Positions 3,013 to 64,000 of a stretch of DNA of 64,000 nt are shown here, piece by piece; positions within the stretch are counted from its first letter, which is position 1, and every line of letters starts with the position of its first letter. The DNA is from Macrostomum hystrix (lineage: Eukaryota > Animalia > Platyhelminthes): the NCBI GenBank assembly GCA_950097015.1, contig CATNEN010000002.1, positions 7,006,001 through 7,070,000 on the forward strand, written 5' to 3'. Under the pieces are notes generated by a model that worked only from the letters and a program-made list of their open reading frames with translations, was not told where the DNA came from and did no database searches. A program made the translations under genes and the position numbers.

Positions 3013-6000
3013 ATGCAAGTGATCGCTCCCAACAATATCAAGATCTACAACCTGCTGAATGCCCAGTCTCTTCCAGACTGGCTTTCCGATCGCAAGAAGC
3101 GCCAATTGCGCAAGGCCGATCCGAGTTTGCGCCACTCAATCCAGCTAATTCAGGATCTGGGCATGCCCAACCTGTGCAGCTACCTGACGCTGTCCCCGGA
3201 CCAGCAGTACCTGTTCCTGCTAGGCGTCTACAAGCCCAGGCTAGCCTGCTTTGAGCTGGCCAATCTGTCACAGAAGTTCGAGCGCTGCATCGACTCACCG
3301 GCACACAAGGTTGGTTTGGCATCTGCCATCATTTTTTCAAAGGGGATAATTTTTCCACTAACAAACAAAATTGAAATTGTTCATTCACCTTTACAACCTT
3401 TGTCTTGAGTCCTTTCTACCCTGCTTCTCTATTGCTTTTTAACTTTGATCCCCTCCGCATCGTCCTCCATGTCCTAACTCGTACAAATTTCCTAACCGCC
3501 AACCGGGGTAAATATTATAGTAAAAGTGCAAACAGTTTTCTTAATTTTTATTTCCTATTGTTTTTTCTCTGTTAGCTCTGTCGTTCGTCCGATTTCTATC
3601 AGTTACTTAATGCAATTACTTATCCATTCTGTTCCCTTCTTATCGATCCTTTTCCTGCCTTATCATTCCATTTCCCATATTTCCTCTTCCCCATCCTTCC
3701 CCTTCCCCATCCGTCCTCTTCCCCATCCTTCCCCTTCCCCATCCTTCCTCTTCCCCATCCTTCCCCTTCCCCATCCTTCCCGTTCCCCATCCTTCCCCTT
3801 CCCCACCCTTCCCTTCGCTATCCCTCTCTTTCATTTCTTCCTACTATGCTCATATCAAACTAATTTACCCATAGAGCTACAGTTAATCTGGTATTTTTTA
3901 TAGAATCAAAATCAGTTGCTGAGTTGGTGACTGAAAGTAAACTGTAAAGAAGAAATAAATTATCAGCTTTTGAGCAATGGCACACACGCACAGTAGGCTT
4001 AGTTAACTTTGTGAGGCAATGCGATTAAACGCAAGCAGCTGCATCCTGTTCTCATCGTTCAGTTGGCCCAGTTTTTTTAGAGGCCGATAAGGCCGGGCTG
4101 CTAAACATTTTCTGCAACACTTCTCTGCCCTTCTACTAGGAGAGAAAAAATAAAGAAGAATTGTCTGGTTAGGCTCTTAAGTAGTCTGTTGCTGCTGCTG
4201 CTTTGGCAGAGGTAGAGCAGAGGTCCTGAGGTGGAATTAACCAAATAGTGCGTCCTTAGCAACAGGCTCTGCTTTTTTAGTTTCTGGCCTCGCCGTGGAA
4301 TCGAGCTCAGGATTCACCCTCACCCCTTCAATCCAGGGGTTTGAATTATAACGTTTGATCTTACTTAGCTTCTCATGGCATCTGTTGGCCCTCCTGTCCA
4401 TGGACTGAACAGCTGTACACAGGCTTTGAATCAGGCCCAAAAAATTTAGCCCAACTGGCTCAAGTAATAAGTAATAAGAATGTAACTTATTACATCTAGG
4501 ATCATCGCTCTACTTTGCGGATAAAGTTAGGAATATGATATGAGTCGCTTTATTGCTATGCATCGGCTTTGAGCTGCGCTGTGTGGTATTTGCACTAAAT
4601 AACGGATGAGACTTGTTGCAGGATTAAAAAAGACTAGCACTAATTATAGAACTTTTATGAAGGCGTCTTTCCATTTTTTTAAAAAGAATTTACTTTGTCT
4701 GAATAAATTTAGCTCTTGTTTTTAGGAGGGGAGTGAGTCACACCAAGGTCCCTGAGCTCGATTCCGCGGCGAGGCCACATTCATTCGAGAAGCAGAAGCG
4801 GAGAGAAGGCTTTGGGGGCTTGTCATGCAATTTACACTCTTGATTACCAACCTCCAAGGCACAGTGAGAGTCTACACTGCCTGACGATGAGAAATTCAGT
4901 GCAGATGTACACACCTGTGTGAGCGTACGCCTACGTACAGTATCTGTGTGCGCGTGTGCTCAGGAGTCAGCGAAATGGGCAGAATTGCCTCTTCGCTGGC
5001 TGCGTGTCTAGTGTCACGAAATGATGTGCCACGATCGATAATCGTTTCCATCGCGCTTAAATTCGAACTTCCGACCTTCCTTACACCGCAATTTCAGCTG
5101 GTGTCAATCAGCGAGGACTACAGCAAGCTGGCCATGCTGGAGGCGGAGCGCTGGCTCGAGCTGCACTCTCAGCAGGGCCATCACTACAAGCTGCGCGTGC
5201 CGGCCGAGGGCCGCGACCTGGCCTGGTGCGGCAGGACTGGCGAGCTTCTGGTGGCGACGGCCAGCGCCGAGCTGCACCGACTCAACCTGGAGCTGGGCCG
5301 GTTCATGCAGCCGTGGCGCACTGAGGCGGCAGTTGAGAACACCCGCTGCTCGGACTGTCCGCAGAACGGCCTGCTGTTTGTTGGCACCGGGGATGCCAAA
5401 GTGCAGGCCTGGGATCCGCGCTCCAAGGCCGCCGTGGCCACGCTGGACATTGGACCGGAGGTCGGCGGCCTGCCGGCTGTCAGCTGCTTGCGGCCCAAGG
5501 ATCACGTGACTCTGGGCGTGGGCCTGGCCTCAGGCCACGCGCTGCTGTACGATATTCGCGAGCGAAGGCCCAGCGTTGTTAAAGACCATCGATACGGGGT
5601 GCCCGTGCATTCCATTGCGTTTCACGGTGACAAGGTGAATACTGCCTACCGATTTGCTTGTGCGGGTTCTGAATGATAATCTAGATAGGTGGGATTTTGG
5701 AGAGTCTAGTGAGGGCTGAGATTTTGAAGTCTGGTGATGGGTGAGATTTCGGAGAGTCAAGTGATAGGTGAGATTTTGGAGTGTGGTGAGATTTCGGAGT
5801 GTAGTGAGGGGTGAGATTTTGGAGAGTCTAGTGAGGGGTGAGATTTTGGACAGTCTTGTGAGGGGTGAGATTTTGGAGAGTCTAGTGAGGGGTGAGATTT
5901 TGGAGAGTCTAGTGAGGGGTGAGATTTTGGAGTGTGGTGAGATTTTGGAGTGTAGTGAGGGGTGAGATTTTGAAGTCTGGTGAGGGGTGAGATTTTGGAT

Positions 6001-46396: not shown

Positions 46397-49300
46397 CTAC
46401 ATGATCTCCAAGCGCGATGGCGGCTGATTTCGCTGATTGACCAGAGGCGTGCCCGGCTTCCTCCGCTCCGGCTGGCCCTGCCTGCCCGCCTTGGTGAACA
46501 CGTGCTGAGAAGGCGGCATTGTGGGGGGAATGCGCGACTGTAACAATAAGACTATGTCTGAGGAAGGGCCGTCAGGCTTCTTTACTTTACTGATAAGATT
46601 CGATGAAATTTACCGCAAAGTCTCTCGAACGGGCTAATAACATCAAAGGAGAGTTACCGCCAAGTCTCTCGAACGGACTAATAACATCAAAGGAGAGTTA
46701 CCGCCAAGTCTCTCGAACGGACTAATAACATCAAAGGAGAGTTACCGCCAAGTCTCTCGAACGGACTAATAACATCAAAGGAGAGTTCCCGCCAAGTCTC
46801 TCGAACGGACTAATAACATCAAAGGAGAGTTCCCGCCAAGTCTCTCGAACGGACTAATAACATCAAAGGAGAGTTACCGCCAAGTCTCTCGACAATACTG
46901 ATTACTACTAAGTCTCTCGATTGTACTGATAAGATTAAAGGAGATTTACCGCCAAGCCTCTTGAATGTTGTGATAACATCAAAGGAGATTTACCGCCAAG
47001 CCTCTCGACTGCACTGATAAGATCAAATGAGCTTTACCGCCAAGCCGAAAATTTGGCGTTATTTTGGCGGTTTCGGCGGTAATTCTAAGATAAAAGAAAA
47101 TGGCCGCTAGGTCTCACCCGGTGCACCGTAGACTCCTTGGCCCGGTTGTAGGCCTCGAGGTCCAACGTGTGCTCGAGCTGCTGATGCTTGACCCGGTCGA
47201 ATCGGTCCAGCGGATCTTCGTAGGGCTTCGGTGGCAGAACCTCCGGCCGCACGCCCAGACCCGCCTCCAGGCTGTTGGCAGCCGGCCGCCTGTCACCGCC
47301 GCCCGCGGAACTGTCCAGGAACGATTCAGCGTACCATTTGTCGAATTCTGGAATAATAGTTCTGTTCCTTTAGTTTCCTGGCCCTCAAAAAGCGAGAGTA
47401 CTTGTGATGCCTCACCTTGGATGAGCTTCTGTCGAGTGAGATCCACCATCTTCTGGCAGTAGAGAATCTGCGTCTTCAGCTCCTTGTGCCGCTCAAAGTC
47501 GGCCTTGTAGGCGTCCTTGAGTTGGCGCAGTTTCTTAATCTCAGCGAACTCCTCCTCGTTGATGATAAGCTCGCCCTCGTCCGTGTACAGATTGCCCTGC
47601 GCCTCGCGCTCCATCTTCAGCGCGTCCAGGCGGAGTCGCGAGCGATCAATCTCCGTCTTGAGGGTGTTGACCTGGCTGGCCACGGCTGAGTACTCCTTCT
47701 TCTTCTCCACCATTGTGTCTGCGGGTTGCGGTGCAGTTCGGCTTCGTTTCATTTGTCTATGGCCCGATCCTATTCCTCCCAGGTGTTCATTTCTGCGAAC
47801 ATGCATGACGTTAGAAAACGCATGGATACCAAAACAATCAGTATTTTCCTTTTTAACTGTCTCTGGATAGATTTTAACAAAAGTAAGTACCTCCCGCACA
47901 TGTACATCACATACATGTACAGCACATACACATACATTTTCTAAGAATCGAGAAAAATTCTAGAATTGCAGTGGGGTGAGTGGCAGAGCGGTTAACGCGT
48001 TACCTCTCGTAGGCAGTCCCTGAGCTCGATTCGACGGCGAGGCCATGTTCATTCGGGGCGAAGCAGCGGGGAGAAGGCTTGCGGGCTTGTCGTGCAATTG
48101 ACGCCCTTGAGGGCCAACCTCAAAAGCACAGTGAAGTGTACACTGCCTGACGATGAGAAAGTCAGGGCAGATGTACACACACACCTGTGTGAGCGTGTGC
48201 CTGCGTACGGTCCTGTGTGCGTGTGTGCTCGGAGTCAGCGGAATGCGCAGAATTGCCTCCTCTCTGGCTGCAGGACTAGTGTCGGCAAATTGTGTGCCCG
48301 CACCTGCAGAACTATGACTCCGAGGTTTCCGGGAGTCCCAACTCACTCCTGTTCTCATTGAGAATCCTGTAGATCTCAGAGCCCAGCTCGCGTTTGAACT
48401 CCTCGAACGCCTGGGTGCGCGACGGCGGAGTTCCGGGCCGGCCGCCGCCAACAGCCTCGGAACCGGCGCCGGCCACGTCTGGCGTCCCGTCGGAGTCGGC
48501 AGCCGCGGCAGTGGCACCAGCGCCTGAAGACGAGGCACCGCCGGCGGCTCCCAGCGGATGCTGTCGGCTTTTCTTTGATGTCGCCGTTGCAGCCGCGGCA
48601 GCCTCGCGTCGCTTGCTCTGCAGAAAGACGCTGGACTCGTCCATGCCGACTTCGCTTCGAGCGGCAATGCCGAAGCTGCGCCCGTCCAAGTCGCCAACAG
48701 CGTCGCCCAGTTGAGCGCCAGAGGTCGATGGTCCGAGAGATCTGGCGGCTCCTTCAGGCGGGGTGGCGCCCACCCCCTGGCCTGCCATCAGCTCCTGGAA
48801 GCGAGTGTCGGCCTCCTCGCGGCTGGCGATGCAGAGTTCGCGGAACAGCTCGAAGACCGCCTGAATCTGGCGAATGCTCATCAGCTGCGTGCGGGAAAAT
48901 TTTTGTTGTCTGCTATTTGCTGGTGCTGTGACATTGTGGTAATGTGAAATTTCTGTATTGTGAGATTGTCGTAATGTGACATTGTGGTAATGTATAATCG
49001 TGGTAATGTGAAATTTTCTTACTACTACTCAGCTAGGCCTGTACTGTACAGAGTCCTGACCAGCAAACTGGGTCCAAACACGCTGAGTTCTACTCACATC
49101 GATTTCATCTAGGTCCCCGTCGATGTAACGCTGCACCTGCTGCCTAAGCTCAAAGCGCTGCTGCTCAGAAATAGGCTCGTAGTGAATGTGCGACTTGTTG
49201 TGCTGCAAAATATTGCGTAAAAGCTCGTTTAATTATAAAAAAATCAAATCTTGGCTTACCAACAATGTGAGAATATGCTTAAGCATGCGTACATTAAACC

Positions 49301-52300
49301 TCTGTCTTACTTACGCGGGCAAAAGACGTGAAACAAACTGTAATTAAAAATATAAATATTATGGGACTTCCCCTACTTCTTCAGGTGACTGTCAACTGCT
49401 ACCCCCAGTTCTTCAGGTCACTGTCAACTGCTACCCCCAGTTCTTCAGGTCACTGTCAACTGCTACCCCCAGTTCTTCAGGTCACTGTCAACTGCTACCC
49501 CCAGTTCTTCAGGTCACTGTCAACTGCTACCCCCAGTTCTTCAGGTCACTGTCAACTGCTACCCCCAGTTCTTCAGGTCACTGTCAACTGCTACCCCCAG
49601 TTCTTCAGGTCACTGTCAACTGCTACCCCCAGTTCTTCAGGTCACTGTCAACTGCTACCCCCAGTTCTTCAGGTCACTGTCAACTGCTACCCCCAGTTCT
49701 TCAGGTCACTGTCAACTGCTACCCCCAGTTCTTCAGGTCACTGTCAACTGCTCCCCAGTTATTCAGGTCACTGTCAACTGCTACCCCCAGTTCTTCAGGT
49801 CACTGTCAACTGCTACCCCCAGTTCTTCAGGTCACTGTCAACTGCTACCCCCAGTTCGTCAGGAAATATCCCGCTTGTTATATTTCTGTGTTCTTTATCT
49901 TCAGTTGTCAGACTAAAGCTTATTAGTGTGCAGGTCATGCTATCCGATAAGTAAATATTCTGGTGCGTTATTCACATATTTTAGTTTGTTAGACCGCATT
50001 AAACTGAGCTGAAAATGTCTCACATTAGAAAAGTAGGGGTGAAAATTTTTTACCACCAATCAGTAAACTATAAAGCAGTGAATGCATGGCAAAATGTACC
50101 TGAACTGCTAAATACGTTGCGTAAGTGATGCCGGATAAAACATTACTGAATTAAATTTAGATAGAAAATATCCAATGAAAGAAAAGAGTGGTCTAACAAA
50201 GTGTTTGAATTATCGCCAAACTAAAACAATGGCGTCTGATTTAAAACAAAAGATCGCACTTTTTCAAATAGCTCCTCGATTTTCTGGAATTGTTTTCCAC
50301 AACTTGTTAAGGCTGTAACTTAGTAAACAAAATAAAAAAGAAATAATTTTTTTACGTATAAAACAATCACGTGACCGTCTTTACCAGTGTATTGTGCATC
50401 GCCAACTCCTTCTTCAGTGCAATGATCTCCGCCTCCAGCACCTTCACCATGATCTGGCGATGCGGTTGAAAGTAACGTTAGATTCCGAAAAGCTTATCAG
50501 CAAACCTCGATCACTTCAGTATTTGGCTTGCCTATTTTCAGGCCCTGAGTTCTTCGTCATCAGTCCCTGAACTCCTTGTCCTCAGTCTCCAGGTTAAAAA
50601 TATTCAGGCTCTAGACTCAGAATCTTCAGTATCTAGCCTCAGAATCCTCAGTATCTAGCCTCAGAATCCTCAGTATCTAGCCTCAGAATCCTCAGTATCT
50701 AGCCTCAGAATCCTCAGTATCTAGCCTCAGAATCCTCAGTATCTAGCCTCAGAATCCTCAGTATCTAGCCTCAGAATCCTCAGTATCTAGCCTCAGAATC
50801 CTCAGTATCTAGCCTCAGAATCCTCAGTATCTAGCCTCAGAATCCTCAGTATCTAGCCTCAGAATCCTCAGTATCTAGCCTCAGAATCCTCAGTATCTAG
50901 CCTCAAAATCTTCAGTCTCTAGCCTCAGAATCCTCAGTCTCTAGCCTCAGAATCCTCAGTATCTAGCCTCAGAATCCTCAGTATCTAGCCTCAGAATCCT
51001 CAGTCTCTAGCCTCAGAATCCTCAGTCTCTAGCCTCAGAATCCTCAGTATCTAGCCCCAGAATCTTCAGTCTCTAGCCTCAGAATCCTCATTCTCGAGCC
51101 TCAGAATCTTCAGTCTCTAGCCTCAGAATCCTCAGTATCTAGCCTCAGAATCCTCAGTATCTAGCCTCAGAATCCTCAGTATCTAGCCTCAGAATCCTCA
51201 GTATCTAGCCTCAGAATCCTCAGTATCTAGCCTCAGAATCCTCAGTATCTAGCCTCAGAATCCTCAGTCTCTAGCCTCAGAATCCTCAGTATCTAGCCTC
51301 AGAATCCTCAGTATCTAGCCTCAGAATCCTCAGTCTCTAGCCTCAGAATCCTCAGTCTCTAGCCTCAGAATCCTCAGTATCTAGCCCCAGAATCTTCAGT
51401 CTCTAGCCTCAGAATCCTCATTCTCGAGCCTCAGAATCTTCAGTCTCTAGCCTCAGAATCCTCAGTCTCTAGCCTCAGAATCCTCAGTATCTAGCCTCAG
51501 AATCCTCAGTCTCTCCCTCATCCCGGTACACATCGGTACTCACAGTGGGATCGGTGCGTTGATTCTCCACTGGCTCGCTCGCCACACAGCTCATGCGCTG
51601 AGCGAATCGCATGGTGGACACCTGCAAATTTGGGCCATAGACATTAGTAGGCCGACAATAGTACGTCAAAGACAATGGGGCCATCGACATACTAGGCCAA
51701 CAATAGTACGTCAATGACTTGAGCACTCACTGTCTCGTCTAGTTGACGAACGTCGCCCCAGATGTTGGCGATGAGAATGGTCTTGCAGCCTCCACCGATG
51801 CTGTCCTTCAGATAGTGCGTGAGCTTGCTCTGCCTGTAGGGCACGTGTTCGCGGTTCTTCTCTGTCAGGGCGATGACAGTCTGCTCCAGGAAGGACAAGG
51901 ACTTGTTGATGTAGGACGCTTCCTGCTGGGTCTTGCCTGTGCTCATTGTCTTCTGCAGCCTCTCAGAGCCGGCCAGATCAACGAAGTTAATCTTGGACGT
52001 TGTGTACTTGGAGTTGGACTGGAAGCGGGACCGAGTCTCCAGGTAGATGGTGAAGATGGTGTGCGAGCGGGACGAGTTCTTGTTCAGAGCGTGGGCGGCC
52101 GTGGCTCGATTCGTCTCACCCTGGAATTCATTGGAAAGAGACTGCTCAGAGTTCGGACTGCTTTGAATCTAGGCGTGTTAATAATAACAACACTAATAAT
52201 TGCAGGAGGCAATTCTGCTCATTTCGCTGACTCCTGAGCACACACGCACACAGATACTGTACTCAGGCGCACGCTCACACAGGTGTGTGTACATCTGCTT

Positions 52301-53253
52301 TGACTTTCTCATCGGCAGCCAGTGTACACTTCACTGTGCCTTGGAGGTTGGCCCTCAAGGGCGTAAATTGCACGTCAAGCCCACAAGCCTTCTCTCCTCG
52401 GTTGCACCCCAAATGAATGTGGCCTCGCCGCGGAATCGAGCTCAGACCTTGGTGCGCGAGGCAAAAGCGTTAGACCGCTCTCACCCAACCTCCCATCTAG
52501 ACACGTTGTACTTCATATGCTTTTGAAGCAGTTATTGTGGTAATTTTAATATCAGAATCCAAGAAACCAAGCGCGAAAAACGCCCACCTCAAACAGAAGG
52601 TTGAGAGCTTCTTCTTCCGTCTGCGCCAGGTGCACATTCAAGCCTTTGACGTAGACTCCGCCGTTCTCTTCGGCGATGACCAGCGGGCTGGTGGCTTCCT
52701 GACTACTGGGCATTGTGCCCAGCAGGTCAAGCATTGTGTCATTGTAGATCTCCAGGTAGGTGATGCGTACAGTGATGGCCAGGTCGGTCTTATTGCCGAT
52801 CTCCTTGTACAGGTGGCTCAGCGCGCGAGGCACGAGGCCGCGATGATGGAAAATCTCCGTGACGCCGGTGATGGTGAAGGTCTTGCCAGCGCCCGTCTGG
52901 CCGTAGCACATGATGGTGCCATTGTAGCCGGCCAAGCCACTCTCGATGAGATCGGCGCCAAGGGTCTCGTAGACGTCCTGCTGCGAGGCATTGTGGAAGA
53001 TGCCATCGGTGCGGAAGACCCACTCAGTGCGCTGGTTGCTGGCAAAGCCACGCTGCTGTTGCTGCTGCTGCTGCTGTTGCTGCTGTTGCTGTTGGTCTCC
53101 GGCTCGCGGCATGCAGATCTGCAGCGACCGGCCTTCCGGGTCCAATCGGAGTACTTCGTCGGCGAAGTTCTGGCTGGGCCGGACTCGAACCCAGACCTTC
53201 ACCTTCTTGCTGCGCTTGCCGCCGCTCTTCATCGTTGCGCGCTGCGGGACCAT
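46397..53253 (-). CDS. KIF9: Kinesin-9 family motor, ~828 aa; exons 53253-52588, 52120-51731, 51621-51544, 50453-50385, 49202-49098, 48884-48347, 47718-47416, 47347-47118, 46504-46397
   Basis: KVKVWVRVRPSQNFADEVL, YGQTGAGKTFT (P-loop), YLEIYND, NKNSSRSHTIF, FVDLAGSER, INKSLSFLEQ and HVPYRQSKLTHYLKDSIGG, then VQRYIDGDLDEID and EFDKWYAESF. All eight introns are GT-AG and phase-compatible. Confidence 0.95.
46600..47045. repeat. 44-bp minisatellite (CCGCCAAGTCTCTCGAACGGACTAATAACATCAAAGGAGAGTTA)
   Basis: In the last KIF9 intron. Confidence 0.92.
47970..48295 (+). mobile_element. tRNA-derived SINE copy with intact head
   Basis: A box GTGGCAGAGCGGTTAA, B-box-like GAGCTCGATTC, head ending CCA at ~48045, then the shared body. 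Confidence 0.88.
49375..49860. repeat. 32-bp minisatellite (TTCTTCAGGTCACTGTCAACTGCTACCCCCAG)
   Basis: About 15 copies in a KIF9 intron. Confidence 0.95.
50615..51515. repeat. 22-bp minisatellite (TAGCCTCAGAATCCTCAGTATC)
   Basis: About 41 copies in a KIF9 intron. Confidence 0.95.
52180..52500 (-). mobile_element. tRNA-derived SINE copy in KIF9 intron 1
   Basis: Minus-strand head GGGTGAGAGCGGTCTAACGC...GAGCTCGATTCCGCGGCGAGGCCA, then the shared body and an ATT-rich tail. Confidence 0.88.
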
Positions 53254-55624
53254 CGGGCTGGGTCAGTTTTCTCTGGGCTGAGAATTTTGGACCCCGCCAG
53301 CTCTCTGACCTGCACCGCGCCGCGATACACTATAGCTCACTTATTAAAGCTTTTGTGCTCATAGGCATTAGATGCGATATATTTTGCTTCCTATGTATTT
53401 ACATAACAGACTAGATTTACCATAGACTATAGCTTAAAAGTCGCGTTCATTCTGCTTAAGATGTCGATTTCAAGGCAAAACAAAACGTAAGCCCACAACA
53501 CATTACTTCTGTGGTTTTATCGATCATTTAGAAACTAAGCAATTACTGCTAAAAATGTAAAATTAGGCGTTGAAAAAAACAAATATTAATGCCCATTACT
53601 ATAGTGTTAGAAAGCAAAAATGTGTTAACCAACTTCAAATATTGAACTCCTACAAACAAATAAACTCGGAGCTAATCATATAATGGCATAATCACTCGCT
53701 ACTTTGATTTTGATGCACAATATGCGAATTATATACGTACTTGATCTTAAGCAGTCATGGCGGTCAAATGGCTGCTGCAGTTAAAAGTATCAGATATTTC
53801 CCTAACTCCCAATTGGAAAAATTCCTTTGATCTAATTAAGACTAAATTAATCCAGTACAATCACAAATATATGATAGATCAACTCTAGATATTACATAGT
53901 GCTAATATAATACCATGATATAATTGTTTGTATTTTGTTTATTTATACTTTAATTTATACCTTAAATTTTAAGGTATTAGGCCTATATATCTAAAAACGT
54001 AAAAACAACACCTCCACAGGCAGGATAATAGAAAGCTTTAGAATATTTCCACCACAAATTTATATAAAATACAAGTAAGCAAAACTATAGTAAAGTGCTA
54101 TTCTTATTATTTCAATACATACACTGATAGTATAGAATCGCTGTTTATCGATAAAAAAAGAATTAATAGATTTTTCATATTTAGAAATTTCACTAACAAC
54201 TTTTAGTCATAGCGAGAAATTACTAGCTTAGAAATTGTATATAACAAAAAAGTGAAAAAAAAGTGATTTTTTGCTTGTGTTTGACTCTTTGATGGAATAA
54301 AAACAATTTTATATCCAAAGTTTGAGCGAATTATTCAAGCTAATACTAAGAAAAATTGATACAAGGCTTCATTCACCTTATTTTTATCTTTACACGCAGA
54401 AAGAAAGGTGAACAGCACCTTATTTTACGATTTACGCAGTAACTATGGCTTCAATGGCATAAACAAAATTGGCTTAAAACAAAACATATATTTGTGTTTT
54501 GTATATTTTTTGAACAAAAACTAGTTTTTTTACTATATTTTGCTATAAAGACTTAAAATACAAACACAGGTAAAATCGTTACGACTAAATTTCCTAATAC
54601 GTGTATATTAGCGATAAGCTTACGAATTGTGTGCTCACTACGCGATCTCCTTTTCGAATTTATCGCTTTTATCGATTCAAATATTATCCACAATATCCGA
54701 AACTATTAAAATACTCCTCACATACCTTTCTAATTCATGCGCCAAAATATGTCAAATGGACCCGAATCTGTACACGTATTTTTATTAAGCTTAACTTCAT
54801 TGTTAATGTGATTTAAATAAAAAACAGTTTTAGATAGGCTTTTCTAATGCATTTCATGCCCAGTGAGGGCTCCATTAGCAATTTAATTGATTGCGTCAGA
54901 GCCAGTTTTGCGAGCGTACTAATAAGAGGCCACCCGTAGGGTGGGGAAAGGCAGCTAATAGTAGCTTTCTAATGATACAGCTTAATCTTCCTATAGGACC
55001 TGTTGCAAAAATTAATGTTTACCTTACAATACAATTAGCACGTGTATTACTTTCATAGTACGTATTTCTAAACGCACCTTCATGGATCGCGACGGACGAA
55101 TCACTTGGTGATATTGACTCATGTGTGAAAGAACGTGAATGATCGATAGTTTGTTACATAGTTTCTTTTATACATTATCAATAATAACAATAATTTTAAT
55201 AATGGTAATGAGGTAAAGTCCATCCCTTTTCCACCTTTTCTTGCCATCCAGACTAGCTTTGAGACTTATAAGACAACCCTGACTTAGCATAGCTCTTCTT
55301 GTCAGACAGGACTGTTAAATCCCAAACTCTGATCGAGAGAACTCATATCAACAATTTGAGCAACCGCTTCGACTTGACCGGCAGACCCGATCCTTAGCCT
55401 TGAGCTCCGGTTCCAGCCTTCGGAGACTCATCTAAGATAAGTGGGACTATACTCTTGTTATCTATAATTAATATCTTTGCGTGATCCAACATCCATGTGC
55501 AGTGTATATGACAACATCGCTGATTGCGAAATAAAATATCTAAGTTGAAGGGTAAAACATCAAGGAAAACCGTCGACCAGACCTCCTGTCTCCTTATTCA
55601 ATAATAGGAAAGATAACCGGATCC

Positions 55625-55990
55625 TTAGTCCTAGACATATTCCTAGACCTAGACCTATATTAGACCTAGACCTATTCCTAGACCTAGACCTATAGACCTA
55701 GACCTATTCCTAGACCTAGACCTATAGACCTAGACCTATTCCTAGACCTAGACCTATAGACCTAGACCTATTCCTAGACCTATTCCTAGACCTATTCCAA
55801 ACCTATTCCAAGACCTATTCCTAGACCTACCTACACCTATTCCTAGGCCTAGACCTAGACCTATTCTTAGACCTATTCCTAGACCTAGACCTAGACTAGA
55901 CCTAGACCTATTCCTATTCAAAGACCTTTTCCTAGACCTATTCCTAGATCTAGACCTATTCCTAGACCTATTTAGACCTATTCCTAGACA
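55625..55990. repeat. Hexamer array of CCTAGA and CCTATT units
   Basis: Read directly. Often arranged as CCTAGA-CCTAGA-CCTATT. Confidence 0.92.
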
Positions 55991-56084
55991 TATTTTCCTC
56001 GCTCGCACTCACTCTCTCTATTGAAATTGCAATAGCGGCAATTCAGCCCGGCTGTGTAGTCTATGGTTTTTTATATAGCAATTC

Positions 56085-56305
56085 TTATGCAGCAAAAGAG
56101 CCCGGCCGAGTCCCCTATGCTTTCTTATGCAGCAAAAGAGCCCGGCCGAGTCCCCTATGCTTTCTTATGCAGCAAAAGAGCCCGACTCAATCCTTAATGC
56201 TTTCTTATGCAGCAAAAGAGCCCGACTCAACCCTTAATGCTTTCTTATGCAGCAAAAGAGCCCGACTCAACCCTTAATGCTTTCTTATGCAGCAAAAGAG
56301 CCCGG
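56085..56305. repeat. 40-bp minisatellite (ATGCAGCAAAAGAGCCCGGCCGAGTCCCCTATGCTTTCTT)
   Basis: About 5.5 copies in two variants. Confidence 0.92.
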
Positions 56306-56680
56306 GACCCGCTTTGCTATAATTCTAAATTGATTACTACTGATAGCAATTGTTGCAGTGTTAGGTGCGAGATCGGTTGGCTGATTGAATACATATACCA
56401 GTCATGATAATTTTGTTTCAAATGGCGCAGTTGTGACAGCAGCGGAATGCAGTTCGAACATTCTATGAAATGGGTTTCATGCAGGGTATTATCTTACGTT
56501 ACATGATGACTGCAGCCCCATGCCACTGCCCGCACCTGAGTTAGGGACCCATTTCGCACTGTGATGATCGATCGAAATTTTTCCAATATACTGTGGGATA
56601 TATAGTGACTATAGCGGTATTAGCTAGTGTTAGACGCGTTGCTGCTGCACTCACGACATTGTTGGGTGCGTAGAACCACG

Positions 56681-57100
56681 ATGAATGCTCATCCTGTGGC
56701 GCTGTTCGGCTCGCCGGCCATCGTGGCACTCCTGGCCAGATGCGACATCGCCTGCCTGGCCCCGTTCCTGGCGCACCGAGGACGACTGGAGCAGCTGACC
56801 TGCCTGCAGCGCCACTGCCCGAATGCTGAGCTGAATGCCACCCAGCTACACACCTTGCTGAAGAGCCTCCTGGACTGGCTGCTACAACACCAGACAGCTG
56901 CGGGCTACGAGACTATCCTGGAGGTGACCTGCCTAACAGAGAACGAGGCTTTCGACTTGGCCGAGCTGCTAGGCCTGCTGGAGGACACCTGTTCGGAGCT
57001 GCAGCACATTCTACACGGGCTGGACTACTGGCGCGGCGTGCAGCAAAGGGCAAGACTGCGAGAGTTGTTCCGGAGTCGCGAATATCGAATGGAGCAGTAG
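56681..57100 (+). CDS. 139-aa helical protein, possible CARD/death-fold
   Basis: GC-rich ORF in AT-rich DNA with host-like codon use and AATAAA at 57176-57181. Hydrophobic pattern ALLARCDIACLAPFLAHRGRL...SLLDWLL...GYETIL...DLAELL resembles CARD helices, by eye only. Confidence 0.6.
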   Translation: MNAHPVALFGSPAIVALLARCDIACLAPFLAHRGRLEQLTCLQRHCPNAELNATQLHTLLKSLLDWLLQHQTAAGYETILEVTCLTENEAFDLAELLGLLEDTCSELQHILHGLDYWRGVQQRARLRELFRSREYRMEQ

Positions 57101-57254
57101 CAGCAGCAAAAAGACTTAGCTACTAGACAGTTAAAATAACTTATCCCTGTTTGTGAACCCAAACCAAGTCTGCACCAATAAAAGAACTAAGGTGGCAGAT
57201 CCAACTCGATACCGGGAAGTTTATTTTGGATAACCTAAAAATAGACCGTATAAG

Positions 57255-57387
57255 AGTACAGTTCGTGGTGCGCGCACAATCCCTAAGAAATATATACATA
57301 AGACGATGCGAGGTGCTTATCTACCTAAAAATAGCAGGCAAGTCCTTATATATTTTTAAGTAATGTGCGCGCACTATGAACTGTACT
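57255..57387. other. Inverted-repeat module A
   Basis: Left arm AGTACAGTTCGTGGTGCGCGCAC pairs with right arm GTGCGCGCACTATGAACTGTACT (two G-T mismatches). The inner TATATA-containing segments pair partially. Confidence 0.9.
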
Positions 57388-57482
57388 TCTAGCTAAAAGT
57401 ACACAATCAACTTAACCGGGATCCGAATTAACCTAATTAAGCACCTATTAATAGAATCTGAGTCGATCAGTTTAAAACTATA

Positions 57483-57520
57483 AGATCAATATGCGCGCAC
57501 ATGTGCGCGCATATTGATCT
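57483..57520. other. Perfect 38-bp palindrome A
   Basis: AGATCAATATGCGCGCACA|TGTGCGCGCATATTGATCT. Confidence 0.97.
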
Positions 57521-57739
57521 ACTAGAAGTAGTAGTAACACTGGTACTATCTGCTGCTCATCCTAAATAGCCTGCTCCTCCTCCTTGGGACGTACTTGGGA
57601 CTCTATTATTAATAGCGAATCCCACCCTGTTGCACCCAGTTGAAGTTGAGTACCTGGGACTGCGTTGGCTTTCTGCAGCCTGCTCATTTTCATACATCCA
57701 AATTTGAACGCGCCTATAATTAACCTGCGGAAGCACAGA

Positions 57740-60535
57740 ATGTCGTTCAACTTTTCAACCGGCTACGACAGCGACGATGAGCGAATTGCGGCCGCGCTGG
57801 ACGAGTTTGAGAGAGTTGCCCAAGATAGTAACTCCGCCGGGCCGGTAGCGTCATCAACTCGCCAGCCACCATCACAGCGAAAAAGAAAGAGCGCTCCCTC
57901 TCAACGTCAGATTGTCAATGCAGCAGCCGCAGAATCTACGCCAGGCCCAAAGCGTATATATACTTTCACCCCAGTGCAGACAGCAGCGGTGGCTAACATC
58001 AGCAGCGACGCCGACGACTTCAGCCTGCTGCCATTGAGCGGTGTCATGCGCCTAAACACTGGAGAGCAGCAGCCTGCCAGTGACCAGATGTCCACAGGCA
58101 ATCAGCAGCCACCGCCTGCCAGTATATCGGCCGTCTACGCGCCCATCTCCCACGCGATGGCAGCCTCAGCCTCGACTGCGCCAAAAGGGAGCATGCTGGC
58201 TTGGCTCGGAGATCAGCACCGGAGTGCCAAGAAGGCCACCAGCAGATGGTCATCGCCGGCAGCGATCAGGCACGTCAGGCGACATGCTCCTGCCAACTGC
58301 GGCGATGGCGACGGGGCGGCGTCTGATGCGCCCGACATGTCCACGGCAGCCCTACAGCCTCGCAGCCCCGTCGTCATCGAGATTGAGGACGTCGACGACG
58401 AGCGCGCCGATAACGGCAGGCCGACAGCGGCAACTCGCACAAAGGCGGAGCCATCGGAGCCTAACGAGCAGGAGGCGGCGATGGATAGCGACGACCGCGA
58501 TGCTCTGCAGGCACTGCTGGACTACGAGGCGTCCACCGTTGCGCTGTCAGTCGCTGCAGATCCCCCACCGTCGGGCGCTGATGCGGAAATGGAGGAGGCC
58601 GCCAGCACGGTGCCGAAACCGCCTCAAGTCGCGGCCGACCAACAACAGCAGCCAGGGAGGCGGAGATTCCGTTTCCAGCGGCTCGAAACGACTGCTCCCG
58701 CTGTTGCTGCTGCTGCCGACTGCTCCATTGTGGGCGCCATGGTGCCAGACTCGCAGCCCGATGGCCGACGATTAGCAGTCGCCAAGACCACACCGTCTCA
58801 GCGTCCGGAAGATGAGACGACGGCCTACGTGGTGTCGCCTGGCACAGCGGCATTCGCAGCAGCCGTGGTGGCCGCTATGAATGAGGCCAGCCAGTCCGTC
58901 CCTGTCGGCGAGGAGTGGTGGCGCATATTAACACCACAGCCGCTGCAGCAACAAGAGCAGGTGCAGCTCGAGCGTCCTCCCTCGCTGGTGCCCTTCAGCT
59001 ACAGTCCGCCGGCGTCTGCGGCACAGCTTATTCACTTCCTCCAGCAACAGCAGGGGGACAGCGAGGCGAGCGGGAGCGGGGTCGGCGGCGCCAGAGGACA
59101 ACGAGGCGGCCGAGGGGTGCGACGGCTGGGCCAAAATCCGCTGCTTAATGCGGCAGCAGCACAGCAGCAGTTCACTGTGACGCGCTCAGTCAGCCGGCCG
59201 CTCGCAATGACCGGTGCTGCTCCTGCGGAGCGACTGCCCGAGGACAGCGGCATTCTGACCGGGCGCCGCTATTTGCACGTCTTCCACATCGACAAGGTGC
59301 GCTTCGTCGGTGAGTCACTTGCTTTGTTCATAAGCTCTGAATCATATAACCAGCTGCTGGCATCCACTGTTTCCATGCTGCCTACATAAACAGGTCGTGC
59401 CAAAGTATATCTGGGCGAGGCTCTGGAGGCACACTGTGTCGAGCTCGTCCTGGCGTCCAGCCCGGGCCTCTGCGTCGGCATGGATGAGTTCTGCGACCGG
59501 CGGCTAGTCGCTGACCCGCTCTCCGTCGACGAGATGGAGCAACAGCAGCAGCAGCAGCAGCAGCACAGCGAGTATCGGCCACACCGCACTCTGTCCGGCT
59601 TCGTGCGCCTGGAGACCAACGCGGCCGGCTGGCATTTGTACGAGCTGCTGTTCAGCCTGCTGCCTAGCCGAGACGAGGGACGCTGCTTTGTGGTGCCCGA
59701 CCGGACCACCCTGACGCTGTGCGGCGTCCGCTCGCCAGACAGTGTGCTGCGGAGCCTGACGCAGCACGACGGCTACCCGCTGCTGATCGGGATCGGCGCC
59801 ACGCAGTGCAGCATGCTGGTGCAAGCGACTCGGTGGGCGCTGTCCTACCCGCTGACTGCCAACCTGCCCGACCAGACTGACGGCTTCTTGTTGGCCCACC
59901 AGCAGATGCGCGCCACGTTGCTGGGGGTCTTTAGAGACGTGCAGCGCCAGCGCCGGATTCGCAGGGAGCAGCTCGCCGGCTGTTCCGCATGTTCCACCGA
60001 GGCTGCCGACATTAGGAACCTGTGCCCGCTCCGAGAGGCCGTCTGCACAGCCCTTCGCCACCAGTCGGGCGTTGTGTACCTTTACGGGCCGTCGGGAGTC
60101 GGCAAGACCACCGCCGTCGAGCGCCACCTGGGCCAGGAGCGCGTCTTCTGTCCGGTCATCAAGCGCTTCGGTGGCAATGACTTCATGTTCGACGGCCTGG
60201 ACACCGCGCGCCACTCCGTCATCTTTCTGGACGAGGTGCGGCCGCACATGTTCGAGGGCGGCGACCTGGAGACCACGCTGTTGCGCCTGCTGAACGGCAA
60301 CAGCTTCCTGGTCAATGCGAAGCACCAGGCGCACGTCTACCTGGACTGGGGCCAACGGCTGGTGATCATGGCCGGCCACGCCTCACCTGACGACTACCCG
60401 GCTGACGTGCAGCGGCGCCTGCGCAACGAGGGCAACACGTGCGTCGAGGTCGACCACGACATCGAGGCCTGCCAGGGGGGGTGCCGCCAGCAGCCAATGT
60501 TCGGAGCCGCCGCCGCCAACGCCCAGGTTGAATGA
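57740..60535 (+). CDS. Spliced Rep-like protein, ~903 aa (exons 57740-59309, 59394-60535): disordered N-terminus, degenerate HUH-like region, SF3 helicase
   Basis: An 84-nt GTGAGT...AAACAG phase-1 intron removes the in-frame TAA and joins the 574-aa and 351-aa ORFs. Walker A GPSGVGKT (60086-60109), FMFDGL..HSVIFLDE (Walker B, 60221-60235), LLRLLNG..VNAK (B'), RLVIMAGH (motif C region) and arginine finger QRRL. Confidence 0.85.
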
Positions 60536-62008
60536 GGCCGCCTTTATATGTCTGTCTGTCTGTCTGTCTATTGCTAAATTATTTCATCCCTGCGCCCGTA
60601 TTTTGTCTCCACCACCATCTTAAAGCGGGTTAGCAGATGTGGGCAGGCAGAAATAGCTAGACGGCCAAAATATTACATAACAAAATATTAGTCCTTATTG
60701 GGCTAAATAAGGAATGGCTTTTGGGTTCGGCTGTTTAACAGCACCATATATTATAATCTATACCTGGCACGCAGTTGCAGAAAACGGGGTAGCAGAAATG
60801 TGCGCGGACTATAGCAATTTATAAAGCATTAGATGGGATTAGTTTAATTGAATTAAATAGCGCGCAGTGTTTTCCTAGTGTTTTTGTTGCTCGTCAGTCT
60901 AGATGTGCTAAGAGATGGAGATGGCATTTATTACTTGTTCTCAGGATCGCTTCTCGCTCTTATCTGATTGCTTTTATTTTGAGTTCTATTATTTCAGAGT
61001 CAATATTTTCATTTAGCATATGTCGCAGGCTGTCGACAATTTCAATTGTCCCCATTTTATTGCCGTTCTACTTTTTCTGTACCGGCTCCATTAAACTTTT
61101 TAATCCCTCACCGCCAACAAATAGTTGTTGTTGTTGTTGCTGTTGCTGCTCTCCAACAAGTTAGATAGATGGGCAGCTAGAATAATTAACAATGATTGCC
61201 TACCTTGTGGAGCGCAGATAAAAATCACTTTAAACGCAGTCGTCGTCGTTGGGGTCGCAGCTGGAGCGGAGCAATCGGAACAGTGTAGGGGGCAGTCGAA
61301 ACGAAATAGTAGATCACGAAGGAGCTGATTTGGTTGATTAATAGAGTTGGTATTGAAAATCAAAGTGTAGCTTGGGAACGATCGAGTCTGTCTTAATCGA
61401 TTGGCATAGAGAAATCAATCAGTGCGCGAGCTAGCTCTCTTTGACTTGTGTGCTCAAGATGAGCAATACAGTCCTTCCTGATAAAATTTAGTTTCTATGT
61501 GCCTAAGCTTTGTCTATGTCTTGAGTTTATCGCATTCCTTTATTAATAGTAGTCTAAAAATAATTTTACACACACGCAGTTGTTATGTGCTTATTTGGGC
61601 GCTATTTGTGTTATTATAATTTATAATAATTGAGCTATAATAATTTGAGCAAGTATACTAGTATATGGTATGAAAAGCTGACTGCATGCATTAATGTGTG
61701 AATAAAGGACATAAATCAAGAAAAAGCATTCGATCAAGAACTACATGTAGACGGTACGTATGGATATGAAAAAAACTAATTTAAGATGAGAATCAACAAG
61801 TGGCATCTGCAACAACAAGCAATTAAAATACATGTAGTAATGTGTGCATTAAAATACAATTTGGATGGACGCAAAAAGCTATACATATAATATAGTACGA
61901 TTTAATAACGGCAATTAACAGCTGCATATAGTGCTACTCAGTTATTTATAGATTTTATATGAAAAACTAAAATTTCAAATTCGCGCTAAATTCTACGAAA
62001 TTCAATGT

Positions 62009-62125
62009 GTACAGTCTGTAGTGCGCGCACATTCCCTAAAAAATATATAAGGCATGTCAGCTCTAATTTTAGAACGACGATCCTTATATATTTTTTAAGT
62101 ATTGTGCGCGCACTATGAACTGTAC
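62009..62125. other. Inverted-repeat module B
   Basis: 44-nt arms (62009-62052 and 62082-62125) with 6 mismatches around a 29-nt loop. The right arm is almost identical to that of module A. Confidence 0.92.
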
Positions 62126-62332
62126 CTAAATCTAAAATTAAATTGCTTACTTGACTACTATAAGTAGAGCAGTTAGCAGCATTTGTTTAATAATTGTCAG
62201 ATAAATCTATGGCTAATTAAATAATTCTATCAACAAAAACAATAAAGTATAATATTATCAACGGGAGTAATCAGTCAATCAATACAATCAATATTCTTAA
62301 CTATAGCATATAATATCAATTATAATAACATT

Positions 62333-62370
62333 AGCGTATAAAGCGCGCACATGTGCGCGCTTTATACGCT
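62333..62370. other. Perfect 38-bp palindrome B
   Basis: AGCGTATAAAGCGCGCACA|TGTGCGCGCTTTATACGCT. Confidence 0.97.
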
Positions 62371-62600
62371 GCAGTAACATGCAGTCAAACGAATTCAATT
62401 ATCCCTCCCTCGAAGGCCTGTGCATGTTTTCTCTGCGTGTTTTCTCTCTGTCCCGGCCCCCTTTATCTGCCCCACGGTGTTTTTCACTCACTATTTAAAT
62501 ATTTAATAATATTTTATATTATTAATATAATATAAATTAAATATTTTATATAAAATCTTAAATAAAGCAGGCAGACAGACAGGCGGGCAGGCAGGGCGAA

Positions 62601-64000
62601 TCAATCAAAATTATGCTCCGCCACTGAGTGCAGCCGCCGTCGCTTTCCGGCCACCGGTCTACCGTGCAGGACTGCGTCGGCTCGTTGGGTGCTCGCCGCC
62701 ACCTCCCCACTTCCACCAGCCAGGCTGCTGATGAGTCCCTGGGTCGGCGGCCTAACTATTGGTCGCATCTCTGCGTCACCTGATGGCACCACAAACCGGC
62801 GGACAATATCGCGGCTGCGAATTACTGTGCCCATCTCGGTGGCCATCTGGGCATTGTGCCCATAATTGTACCGGATGACAGCTGCAGATGTGCCGTGCGC
62901 TCTGGCGAACATATCCAGCTGCTCCGGCTCCATCATGAGCACTACGGCACAGAGGGTGCGACGCCAGTGCGTGGCCACATAGTGCCGACCCAGTACTCGC
63001 TGCCCGCCTGCGCTGATCATGCGGCTCATTGCCGACTGGCTGTACACACCGCCGAACACATCAATGAAGACGGTCGGCGACTCCGGTTGCTCGATGCCGC
63101 GAGCAGCAAGCGACGGCACGATATATTCGTCGTGCAGGCGCAGCAAGGCCTCGCAGAATATATCCGGCAGCACCATCCTGGCTGGGTCGCCGGAGTGTCC
63201 GACCTTGTGCGGCACTTCACGCAGCGGCAGGACGAGATGCGAGTGCCCAGCCAGATCGGCAGCGGACGGCCCGCTCCCCCCATCTGCACTTTGCGTGTGT
63301 TGGCGGAACAGCTGTTTTTGGTCGGCCGACGCGTTTCGCCGAACCGAACGGTCGACCAGGTGTCGCCGTCTCAAGTATATCCACGGCAGAAGTCGCAGTG
63401 CCTGCTCGACGCTGCAGTAGAAAAGCATCTCCTGCACTATCCGCCGCAGACATCCGGCGACTGAAGGCGCCATCATCTGCTTCGCCGTTGTCTTTAGTGT
63501 CATCAGCGATGCCATCAGCGACCACACCTGCTGCCTGCATGCCCCATTCGCCGTCGACTGGCAGTGAAGACCAGCTGTGTCTTTGGAGCATGATGAAAAA
63601 GCGGTCTCGACGGGCGAACACGGCATCAACCTCGTCTACGTTGACGTAGGTGTTCATAAATGCCACCTGCCGCTCATTGTGGCCAAGCTTGTAGACGGCC
63701 TGCATAGTATAAATGTGGTTGCGTTTACTTCTAGTAGATAGCAGCACGAAACCAAATAGAACTAACTGTCATTAATGCAGCTGCTGTGCAGCTATAGCCT
63801 ACCTGCTGTATGGCTCGGACATTGCCGAACTCGCCACGAGCCTGCTGCACCACGCTGCTAAGGCGGGCGATGAGAGCCTGCTCAGCCGCCAGCGGGTTGT
63901 TGGCCTTCTGCGCCAACTGCATTCTCCAGCAGACGCCACTGCCGACAGAGTCGACGTCCTCAATAGCAGGGCGCTCGGTGTCAGGCGAGGGTGAGTCGAT
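62601..64000 (-). CDS. Tyrosine recombinase (phage-integrase family), spliced and 5'-incomplete; exons >64000-63803, 63699-63528, 63460-62601
   Basis: Catalytic-order motifs: IYLRRRHL (first Arg, ~63370), PHKV (Lys, 63206), VFIDVFGGVYSQSAMSRMI, THWRRT (HxxR, 62969-62958) and ARAHGTSAAVIRYNYGH (Tyr, 62864). Intron 63802-63700 (GTAGGC...ATGCAG) is well supported. Intron 63527-63461 (GTGTGG...CTTCAG) restores the frame but has a weaker donor. Confidence 0.82.

Follow-up and report, generated by a model that had tools for sequence, protein, structure and literature searches.

The right end of a 64,000-nucleotide stretch of the flatworm Macrostomum hystrix genome (GenBank assembly GCA_950097015.1, contig CATNEN010000002.1, positions 7,006,001 to 7,070,000; here called the window, with coordinates counted from its first letter) carries part of an unannotated low-copy element with a gene for a Rep-like protein and a gene for a divergent tyrosine recombinase-like protein. 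Two modules, A and B, lie on either side of the Rep-like gene, each with an imperfect hairpin (A1 or B1) and a perfect palindrome (A2 or B2) (Table 1). We read these modules as cis-acting parts of the Rep-recombinase element and A1 and B1 as polar recombination sites that would release a 4.75-kb circle, and we put the probability of this reading at roughly 0.42. The element itself is well supported, and the excision mechanism is plausible.

Table 1. Features of the element and their positions in the window
Feature	Position	Strand	Remarks
Left-boundary zone of element	55567..56304		Host-level depth to 55567, element-level depth from ~56275
6-bp-period array	55626-55989		Within left-boundary zone
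40-bp-period array	56082-56304		Within left-boundary zone
ORF1	56681..57100	+	139 amino acids, no family found; in multicopy unit
Hairpin A1	57255..57387	+	133 nt; two 41-bp arms around a 50-nt loop
A1 left arm	57256-57296
A1 right arm	57347-57386
Palindrome A2	57483..57520		Perfect palindrome of 38 bp with two head-to-head GCGCGCACA boxes
Rep-like gene	57740..60535	+	Predicted 903 amino acids, spliced
Rep intron (predicted)	59310-59393	+	84 nt, GTGAGT..ACAG, phase fits
Degenerate single copy of hairpin outer box	60794..60812	+	89% over 19 nt, 3' of Rep
Hairpin B1	62009..62125	+	117 nt; polarity as in A1; 35-nt loop
B1 left arm	62009-62049
B1 right arm	62085-62125
Palindrome B2	62333..62370		Perfect 38-bp palindrome; 18-bp core identical to A2, flanks differ
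Tyrosine recombinase-like gene	62601..64000	-	Divergent; extends beyond window edge
Recombinase catalytic-domain exon	~63460-62601	-	Predicted
Recombinase introns (two)	~63802-63700, ~63534-63461	-	Putative, from GT/AG and frame only

The hairpins had been proposed from the letters alone, as two modules at 57255-57387 and 62009-62125 associated with a Rep gene and a recombinase-like gene (the original prediction). Both the arms and the folding bear the modules out, and the association with the two genes holds. In each arm, an outer box with GCGCGCACA at its end is followed by a spacer of ∼5 to 6 nt and an AT-rich inner box. When the four arms are aligned in one orientation, 32 of the 41 columns are common to all of them. 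The right arms of A1 and B1 are nearly identical, as predicted, with 2 differences in 41 aligned columns; the left arms differ at 5 columns and share the expected TCCCTAA. The opposite strand of the two right arms contains TACTTAA. The loops had been called unrelated, and they are indeed mostly dissimilar, apart from a slight residual likeness next to the arms. As single-stranded DNA, both hairpins fold into two stems, outer and inner, with an internal loop of 5 nt between them and an end loop that varies (z = −7.3 for A1 and −11.4 for B1; none of 200 shuffles folded as well), with one bulged base in the fold of A1 and none in the arms of B1. The sequence GTGCGCGCAC, with at most one mismatch, occurs 8 times against 1.6 expected, a count that none of 100 shuffles reached. 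A search of Rfam gave 10 matches, every one a microRNA hairpin model far below its gathering score, and a 22-mer from the right arm had no match in viral contigs.

Of the nine variable columns, three distinguish the left arms from the right arms in A as well as in B, and two of these three are in the spacer. Because these separating columns are conserved in both modules, A1 and B1 are polar and in direct orientation; the predicted distance of ∼4.75 kb is borne out at 4753 and 4739 bp. A 12-bp direct repeat occurs at 57233, just left of A1, and at 57323, within the A1 loop.

The palindromes had been overlooked in the original prediction. A2 starts 96 bp beyond A1 and B2 starts 207 bp beyond B1, which places the two palindromes 4850 bp apart. 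Both are centered on the junction of GCGCGCACA and TGTGCGCGC, and with a half-length of 19 they exceed every other perfect palindrome in the window (the next has a half-length of 10, and 30 block shuffles gave at most 12). The 9-mer GCGCGCACA has eight copies in the 64 kb, two each in A1, A2, B1, and B2 and none elsewhere, and AT-rich stretches adjoin the box pairs. Judging from this distribution, the same protein probably recognizes the boxes in all four structures. Assembly contigs end symmetrically at A2 and B2; these ends are not informative on hairpin ends, because any 38-bp palindrome causes them, and fold-back at palindromes of this kind contributes no new 31-letter words. The 18-bp palindrome core matched six viral contigs, which we rejected as chance matches (GC-rich, with half-palindromes of 9 to 12 and without a protein match).

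The palindrome center also contains CACATG/CATGTG, which we take to be an E-box-like motif. On this basis, the modules could be transcription-control elements that are bound by host factors and drive or insulate the genes of the element, and A2, with the Rep start codon ∼220 bp downstream of it, would be suitably placed for such a role. However, module B lies between two converging 3' ends, as originally predicted (the Rep stop at 60535, 1.47 kb away, and the recombinase stop at 62601), and B1 and B2 are situated past the recombinase stop, where no nearby gene start is convincing; the sole candidate frame (61414-61103, minus strand) is AT-rich and without a family. Enhancers also do not need 41-bp paired arms, and we consider transcriptional control improbable as an explanation of the modules.

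To place the modules relative to the repeats of the genome, we used contigs of sequencing runs. Eight runs from two studies cover part of the stretch; four were compared with the element and four with the host flank, five of them distinct. No RNA data set covering the stretch was listed, which is uninformative on expression. Depth ratios come from the single run X1, possibly the sample that the window was taken from, and they are rough, since contig depth does not equal copy number; uncovered parts in X2, X4, and X5 carry no weight. In X1, long host contigs have depths of 69 to 94 and the element has depths of 399 to 1463 (median, 632). The four module bins, at 399 to 513, are 4.8 to 6.1 times host depth and close to the Rep gene, whereas a short repeat at 52204-52445, within an intron of a KIF9-like kinesin gene, exceeds a depth of 1 million (∼14,000 times host). 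Because module depth is ∼5 to 6 times host against ∼14,000 times for this neighboring repeat, a scattered high-copy miniature inverted-repeat transposable element (MITE) is excluded at ≥85% identity (matches below 85% were not counted), and the modules are parts of a low-copy element. A genome-wide MITE was the case against the modules that the original prediction had named. The size and inverted arms of the modules are MITE-like, and they might still be independent MITE insertions unrelated to the genes; against this stand, besides the depth that they share with the element, the lack of any further module copy within the 64-kb window, the lack of an evident target duplication common to the A1 and B1 flanks, and a diverged copy of the element (record 22 of X4) that retains B1 together with its upstream flank. 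We regard such insertions as very improbable.

Copies of the element vary by substitutions and indels. A single X1 contig agrees with module A as far as 57311, where it passes into 11 letters similar to the B loop read on the reverse strand; it may represent a recombinant or a third variant of the module. Record 32 of X5 (681 nt) matches 62129-62181, right of B1, and the match is preceded by a diverged right arm, which suggests a more distant subfamily with altered boxes.

The Rep-like protein is predicted to have a low-complexity N-terminal half (520 amino acids), followed by a probable degenerate HUH-like domain and a superfamily 3 (SF3) helicase. We compared it with 33 Reps of viruses whose single-stranded DNA is circular and encodes a Rep (CRESS DNA viruses), drawn from 124 viral loci, and found a match by HHalign (95.6%) and by hmmsearch (13.6 bits; 200 shuffles gave ≤0.0). 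The motifs GPSGVGKT, FDG, FLDE, IMAGH, and RR align with those of the 33 references in CRESS spacing, with a His in IMAGH in place of the usual Asn; we take these motifs to include Walker A, Walker B, and motif C, and we also assign an Arg finger. The protein further scored 0.92 to 0.95 with CRESS and plasmid Reps in Atlas. A fold search of viral structures (BFVD) with a low-confidence model, usable solely at residues 205 to 360, returned CRESS Reps on top. PDB searches with the same model gave generic AAA+ folds, among which CRESS Rep ATPase domains reached a Z score of 7.5, tied with many others. By its motifs, the helicase is of the CRESS type.

Relatives of the Rep-like protein are few. 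Exon 2 had two matches among 7868 candidates, a hypothetical protein of Macrostomum lignano (PAA62424.1; 70% identity, the closest relative) and one metagenomic protein (52% identity). No homolog was found among 7996 candidates at longer lengths, in viral contigs (0 of 8 and 0 of 599 stretches), or in 441 metagenome contigs. A tblastn search of phages and plasmids for homologs was also without result. Among the joints listed for the runs, none is a splice joint of the element's genes, and no contig shows the Rep intron spliced out. A CTGT-repeat tract follows directly after the stop codons of both the Rep gene (60552-60569) and the recombinase gene (62573-62590), perhaps as a 3' processing signal common to the two genes.

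The HUH part of the protein is considerably less clear than the helicase. It aligns solely within the whole protein: residues 1 to 175 of exon 2 alone score 0.2% by HHalign, with a model of low confidence (predicted local distance difference test [pLDDT], <50), and motif II has two possible registers, both noncanonical. The catalytic YxxK of motif III, which all 33 references have, is missing, and the tyrosines in the matching stretch read YELL and YPLL. The loss of this nicking motif, also overlooked originally, suggests that Rep binds and unwinds DNA without nicking it.

These properties of Rep bear on the possibility that the modules are Rep-binding origins, with GCGCGCACA as the Rep iteron and with palindromes and hairpins that load the SF3 helicase. 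The duplication would then reflect two cointegrated segments with a common region, as in multipartite single-stranded DNA viruses, and the recombinase would act at the outer ends only. Eight identical boxes in four inverted pairs with AT-rich stretches alongside are what such an origin would provide, as is one hairpin plus one palindrome per segment, and in Polinton-like viruses, inverted repeats of Rep-plus-recombinase end modules have been proposed to be both origin and substrate (PMC11296320). We nevertheless hold an origin to be a possible but rather unlikely explanation. None of five patterns of the CRESS nonanucleotide origin was found in either hairpin loop or palindrome, Rep lacks the YxxK that all the references have, and the conserved left-right asymmetry of the spacer is not obviously needed by a pure origin. 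A double hexamer of Vientovirus Rep, considered as support for a head-to-head origin, was dropped, as it is described as stacked (PMC12981564).

The recombinase-like protein is more divergent. In Atlas, it scored 0.92 with a PF00589 cluster (29% of members) and 0.93 to 0.94 with unnamed eukaryotic clusters, and a search of 1.84 billion representatives turned up four metagenomic relatives. The alignment of this family matched 60 phage integrases, retained from 120 loci, with the motifs in register (HHalign, 63.5%; E = 7e-5; score of 35, against ≤19 in 30 shuffles). Residues R170 and Y203 are invariant in five of five sequences, K89 in three of three, and R26 in two of two. An active site at H168-R171-H192-Y201 was rejected: homologs do not conserve it, such a pattern arises in 200 of 20000 shuffles, and the register is instead R170-T194-Y203. 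Single-sequence structure prediction gave no usable fold (pLDDT, 34), and no homologs were found among 4606 candidates at near lengths or in 225 metagenome contigs searched for P0005. Membership of the gene in the tyrosine recombinase superfamily is moderately supported by these alignments, and its activity is putative.

A protein of this superfamily next to long palindromes could also act as a protelomerase. A2 and B2 would then be telomere-resolution sites, cut with a 6-bp stagger at ACATGT and sealed into hairpins. The product would be a linear Rep segment of 4.85 kb, capped by hairpins and carrying B1 close to one end. As perfect palindromes of 38 bp around a 6-bp center, A2 and B2 can be compared with telRL of phage N15 (56 bp) and with a telRL-like site in an endogenous algal virus (PMC13236599), and the His of HxxR is replaced here as it is in TelN (by Lys). 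However, the spacing from the Arg to the His/Trp site is 24 residues, near that of lambda Int (22) and Cre (23) and not that of TelN (33), and a comparison with 35 TelN-like proteins, a narrow set of low diversity retained from 64 loci, gave only 0.07% by HHalign. Telomere resolution would also leave the conserved hairpins unexplained. We consider it unlikely, more so than an origin.

If A1 and B1 are recombination sites, the recombinase would bind the boxes that flank the 5- to 6-nt spacer. Since the spacer is the same in both modules yet not the same in left and right arms, A1 and B1 would exchange only left with left or right with right, and inversion of the loop would be forbidden. As the modules are direct repeats, such an exchange would result in excision. 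It could take place on double-stranded DNA or on a folded single strand, as in attC and the attP of CTX phage. The excised 4.75-kb circle would contain Rep, one hairpin, and A2, and the chromosome would retain one hairpin, B2, and the recombinase gene; each product would thus have one of each site. The palindrome on the circle may then serve as a helicase-loading origin, given that Rep appears unable to nick.

The original prediction had offered recombinase sites, replication origins, and Rep-binding sites as candidate roles, and the first of these fits best. Several observations weigh against it, however. No A/B hybrid joint was present among the three joints listed for four runs, at a threshold of 5% and in contigs that drop rare forms, and the A-to-B segment in X1 is no deeper than its flanks. 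In its favor, one column beside the box is crossed, in that A-left equals B-right and B-left equals A-right (cross pairs of arms differ at 11 columns and present pairs at 13); this might be a weak trace of a past A-by-B exchange in the spacer, yet it is a single position with a chance, roughly estimated, of ∼1/20. Also against it, the outer box of an arm does not repeat the inner box in inverted form, in contrast to loxP-type sites, and recombination sites leave unexplained why the same box occurs in both hairpin arms and palindromes. The enzyme itself is also problematic. Sequence searches of Pfam, PHROGs, NCBIfam, and PDB returned no family for it, and the complete R-K-H-R-H/W-Y active site was not found: both catalytic His positions are replaced (T167 and T194), with T/Y/M/T/T at the His site across five family members and Thr in all five at the His/Trp site. 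Recombinase activity is not assured because of these two replacements. Finally, the metagenome contigs yielded no independent locus that joins a homologous recombinase to such hairpins.

The element extends at least 412 bp beyond the window end, and the window contains solely its left ∼8 kb. The region of open reading frame 1 (ORF1), 56623-57185, has ∼2 times the X1 depth of its flanks and loose ends at both sides, and ORF1 is therefore also present in another context. No capsid gene was recognized in 56340-64000, with the element continuing past 64000. Between Rep and module B, a minus-strand frame at 61414-60900 has a glutamine run and a Cys-His cluster and is covered by an X4 contig. We rejected it as a fourth gene, which would have made the A-B unit ambisense: it is AT-rich, is interrupted by stops, and has no family, and it is possibly a decayed reading frame.

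The rest of the window contains ordinary eukaryotic genes. Pfam matches at 4891-34545 identify NOL10-like, NDUFA12, TAF3-like (Bromo_TP plus PHD), RCC1-repeat, SURF6, and SLC3A2-like genes. The KIF9-like kinesin gene (47114-53253, minus strand) has large tandem arrays in its introns, with periods of 22, 32, and 44. The repeat at 52204-52445 is probably a family resembling short interspersed nuclear elements, and a related stretch is found near 48050-48300. Contigs from X4 and X6 lack 52119-52587, a gap with CT..AC ends, and for this reason these two runs (listed possibly as DNA, or unknown) behave as RNA.

Several known systems share individual traits with the element. Integron attC sites are 57 to 141 bp long with an unpaired spacer of 5 to 6 nt (PMC5027507), and the attP of CTX phage consists of two recombinase sites in inverted orientation, separated by 90 bp (PMC4246890). 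Like these, A1 and B1 are imperfect hairpins (117 to 133 nt) in which two boxes pair, a spacer of 5 nt stays unpaired, and the loop varies; they likewise enclose a gene in direct orientation and have a tyrosine recombinase next to them. In contrast to these bacterial systems, the arms here are far longer and nearly identical between sites, and the RYYYAAC/GTTRRRY core consensus and shared extrahelical bases of attC are absent. The telRL sites of phage N15 and of Ectocarpus endogenous viruses (PMC13236599) likewise have a long, 6-bp-centered palindrome beside the gene for a tyrosine-family enzyme; there is one such site in those systems and two here, and the enzyme has no match to TelN-like proteins. 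As tested, the element is neither an integron, since the core consensus is absent, nor a TelN system.

The likeness to CRESS viruses and pCRESS plasmids lies in the helicase motifs and the likely HUH-derived domain in front of them. With neither YxxK nor a nonanucleotide loop, the element is not a member of the CRESS viruses as tested; it also differs in having no capsid gene in view, a 520-amino-acid low-complexity N terminus, and a recombinase neighbor. Replitrons show the reverse of the Rep described here, having kept the nuclease and lacking the helicase (PMC10288648). The nicking tyrosine appears to have been lost, in parallel with the path proposed from CRESS Reps to the helicases of papillomaviruses and polyomaviruses (PMC11071296).

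Among eukaryotic elements, Cryptons have an intron-containing tyrosine recombinase and a proposed excision as a circle, as envisaged here; they have 4- to 6-bp terminal direct repeats and an R-H-R-Y tetrad, and the main text of their description does not mention a helicase (PMC3212892). The present element differs in its Rep-SF3 gene, its internal hairpins with 41-bp arms, its palindromes, and its replaced His positions, with its right end outside the window. In the end modules of Polinton-like viruses, an SF3 helicase is found alongside inverted repeats and a tyrosine recombinase, in some cases with flanking direct repeats; the helicases there are D5-like primase-helicases, not CRESS-type Reps (PMC11296320), and virion genes are not seen in the visible part of the present element, which extends past the window.

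The literature that we searched, with thin coverage of subscription journals and repeat databases, contained no eukaryotic element with both a CRESS-type Rep and a tyrosine recombinase. It is conceivable, if rather doubtful, that the element represents a new group of animal mobile elements, in which a nicking-dead CRESS-type Rep and a noncanonical tyrosine recombinase are combined with integron-like hairpins that release Rep as a circular or hairpin-capped replicon; these would be the first eukaryotic recombination sites that are folded in this way. If the hairpins recombine as folded strands, animals would share the mechanism of CTX phage and bacterial integrons, and because the sites are short and adjoin both candidate enzymes, they lend themselves to direct testing in vitro. 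Among known eukaryotic elements, Cryptons have a tyrosine recombinase but no Rep, Replitrons have a Rep nuclease but no helicase, and Polinton-like viruses pair their recombinase with a helicase of the D5 type; an element in which the recombinase adjoins a CRESS-type Rep would bridge single-stranded DNA viruses and integrating elements.

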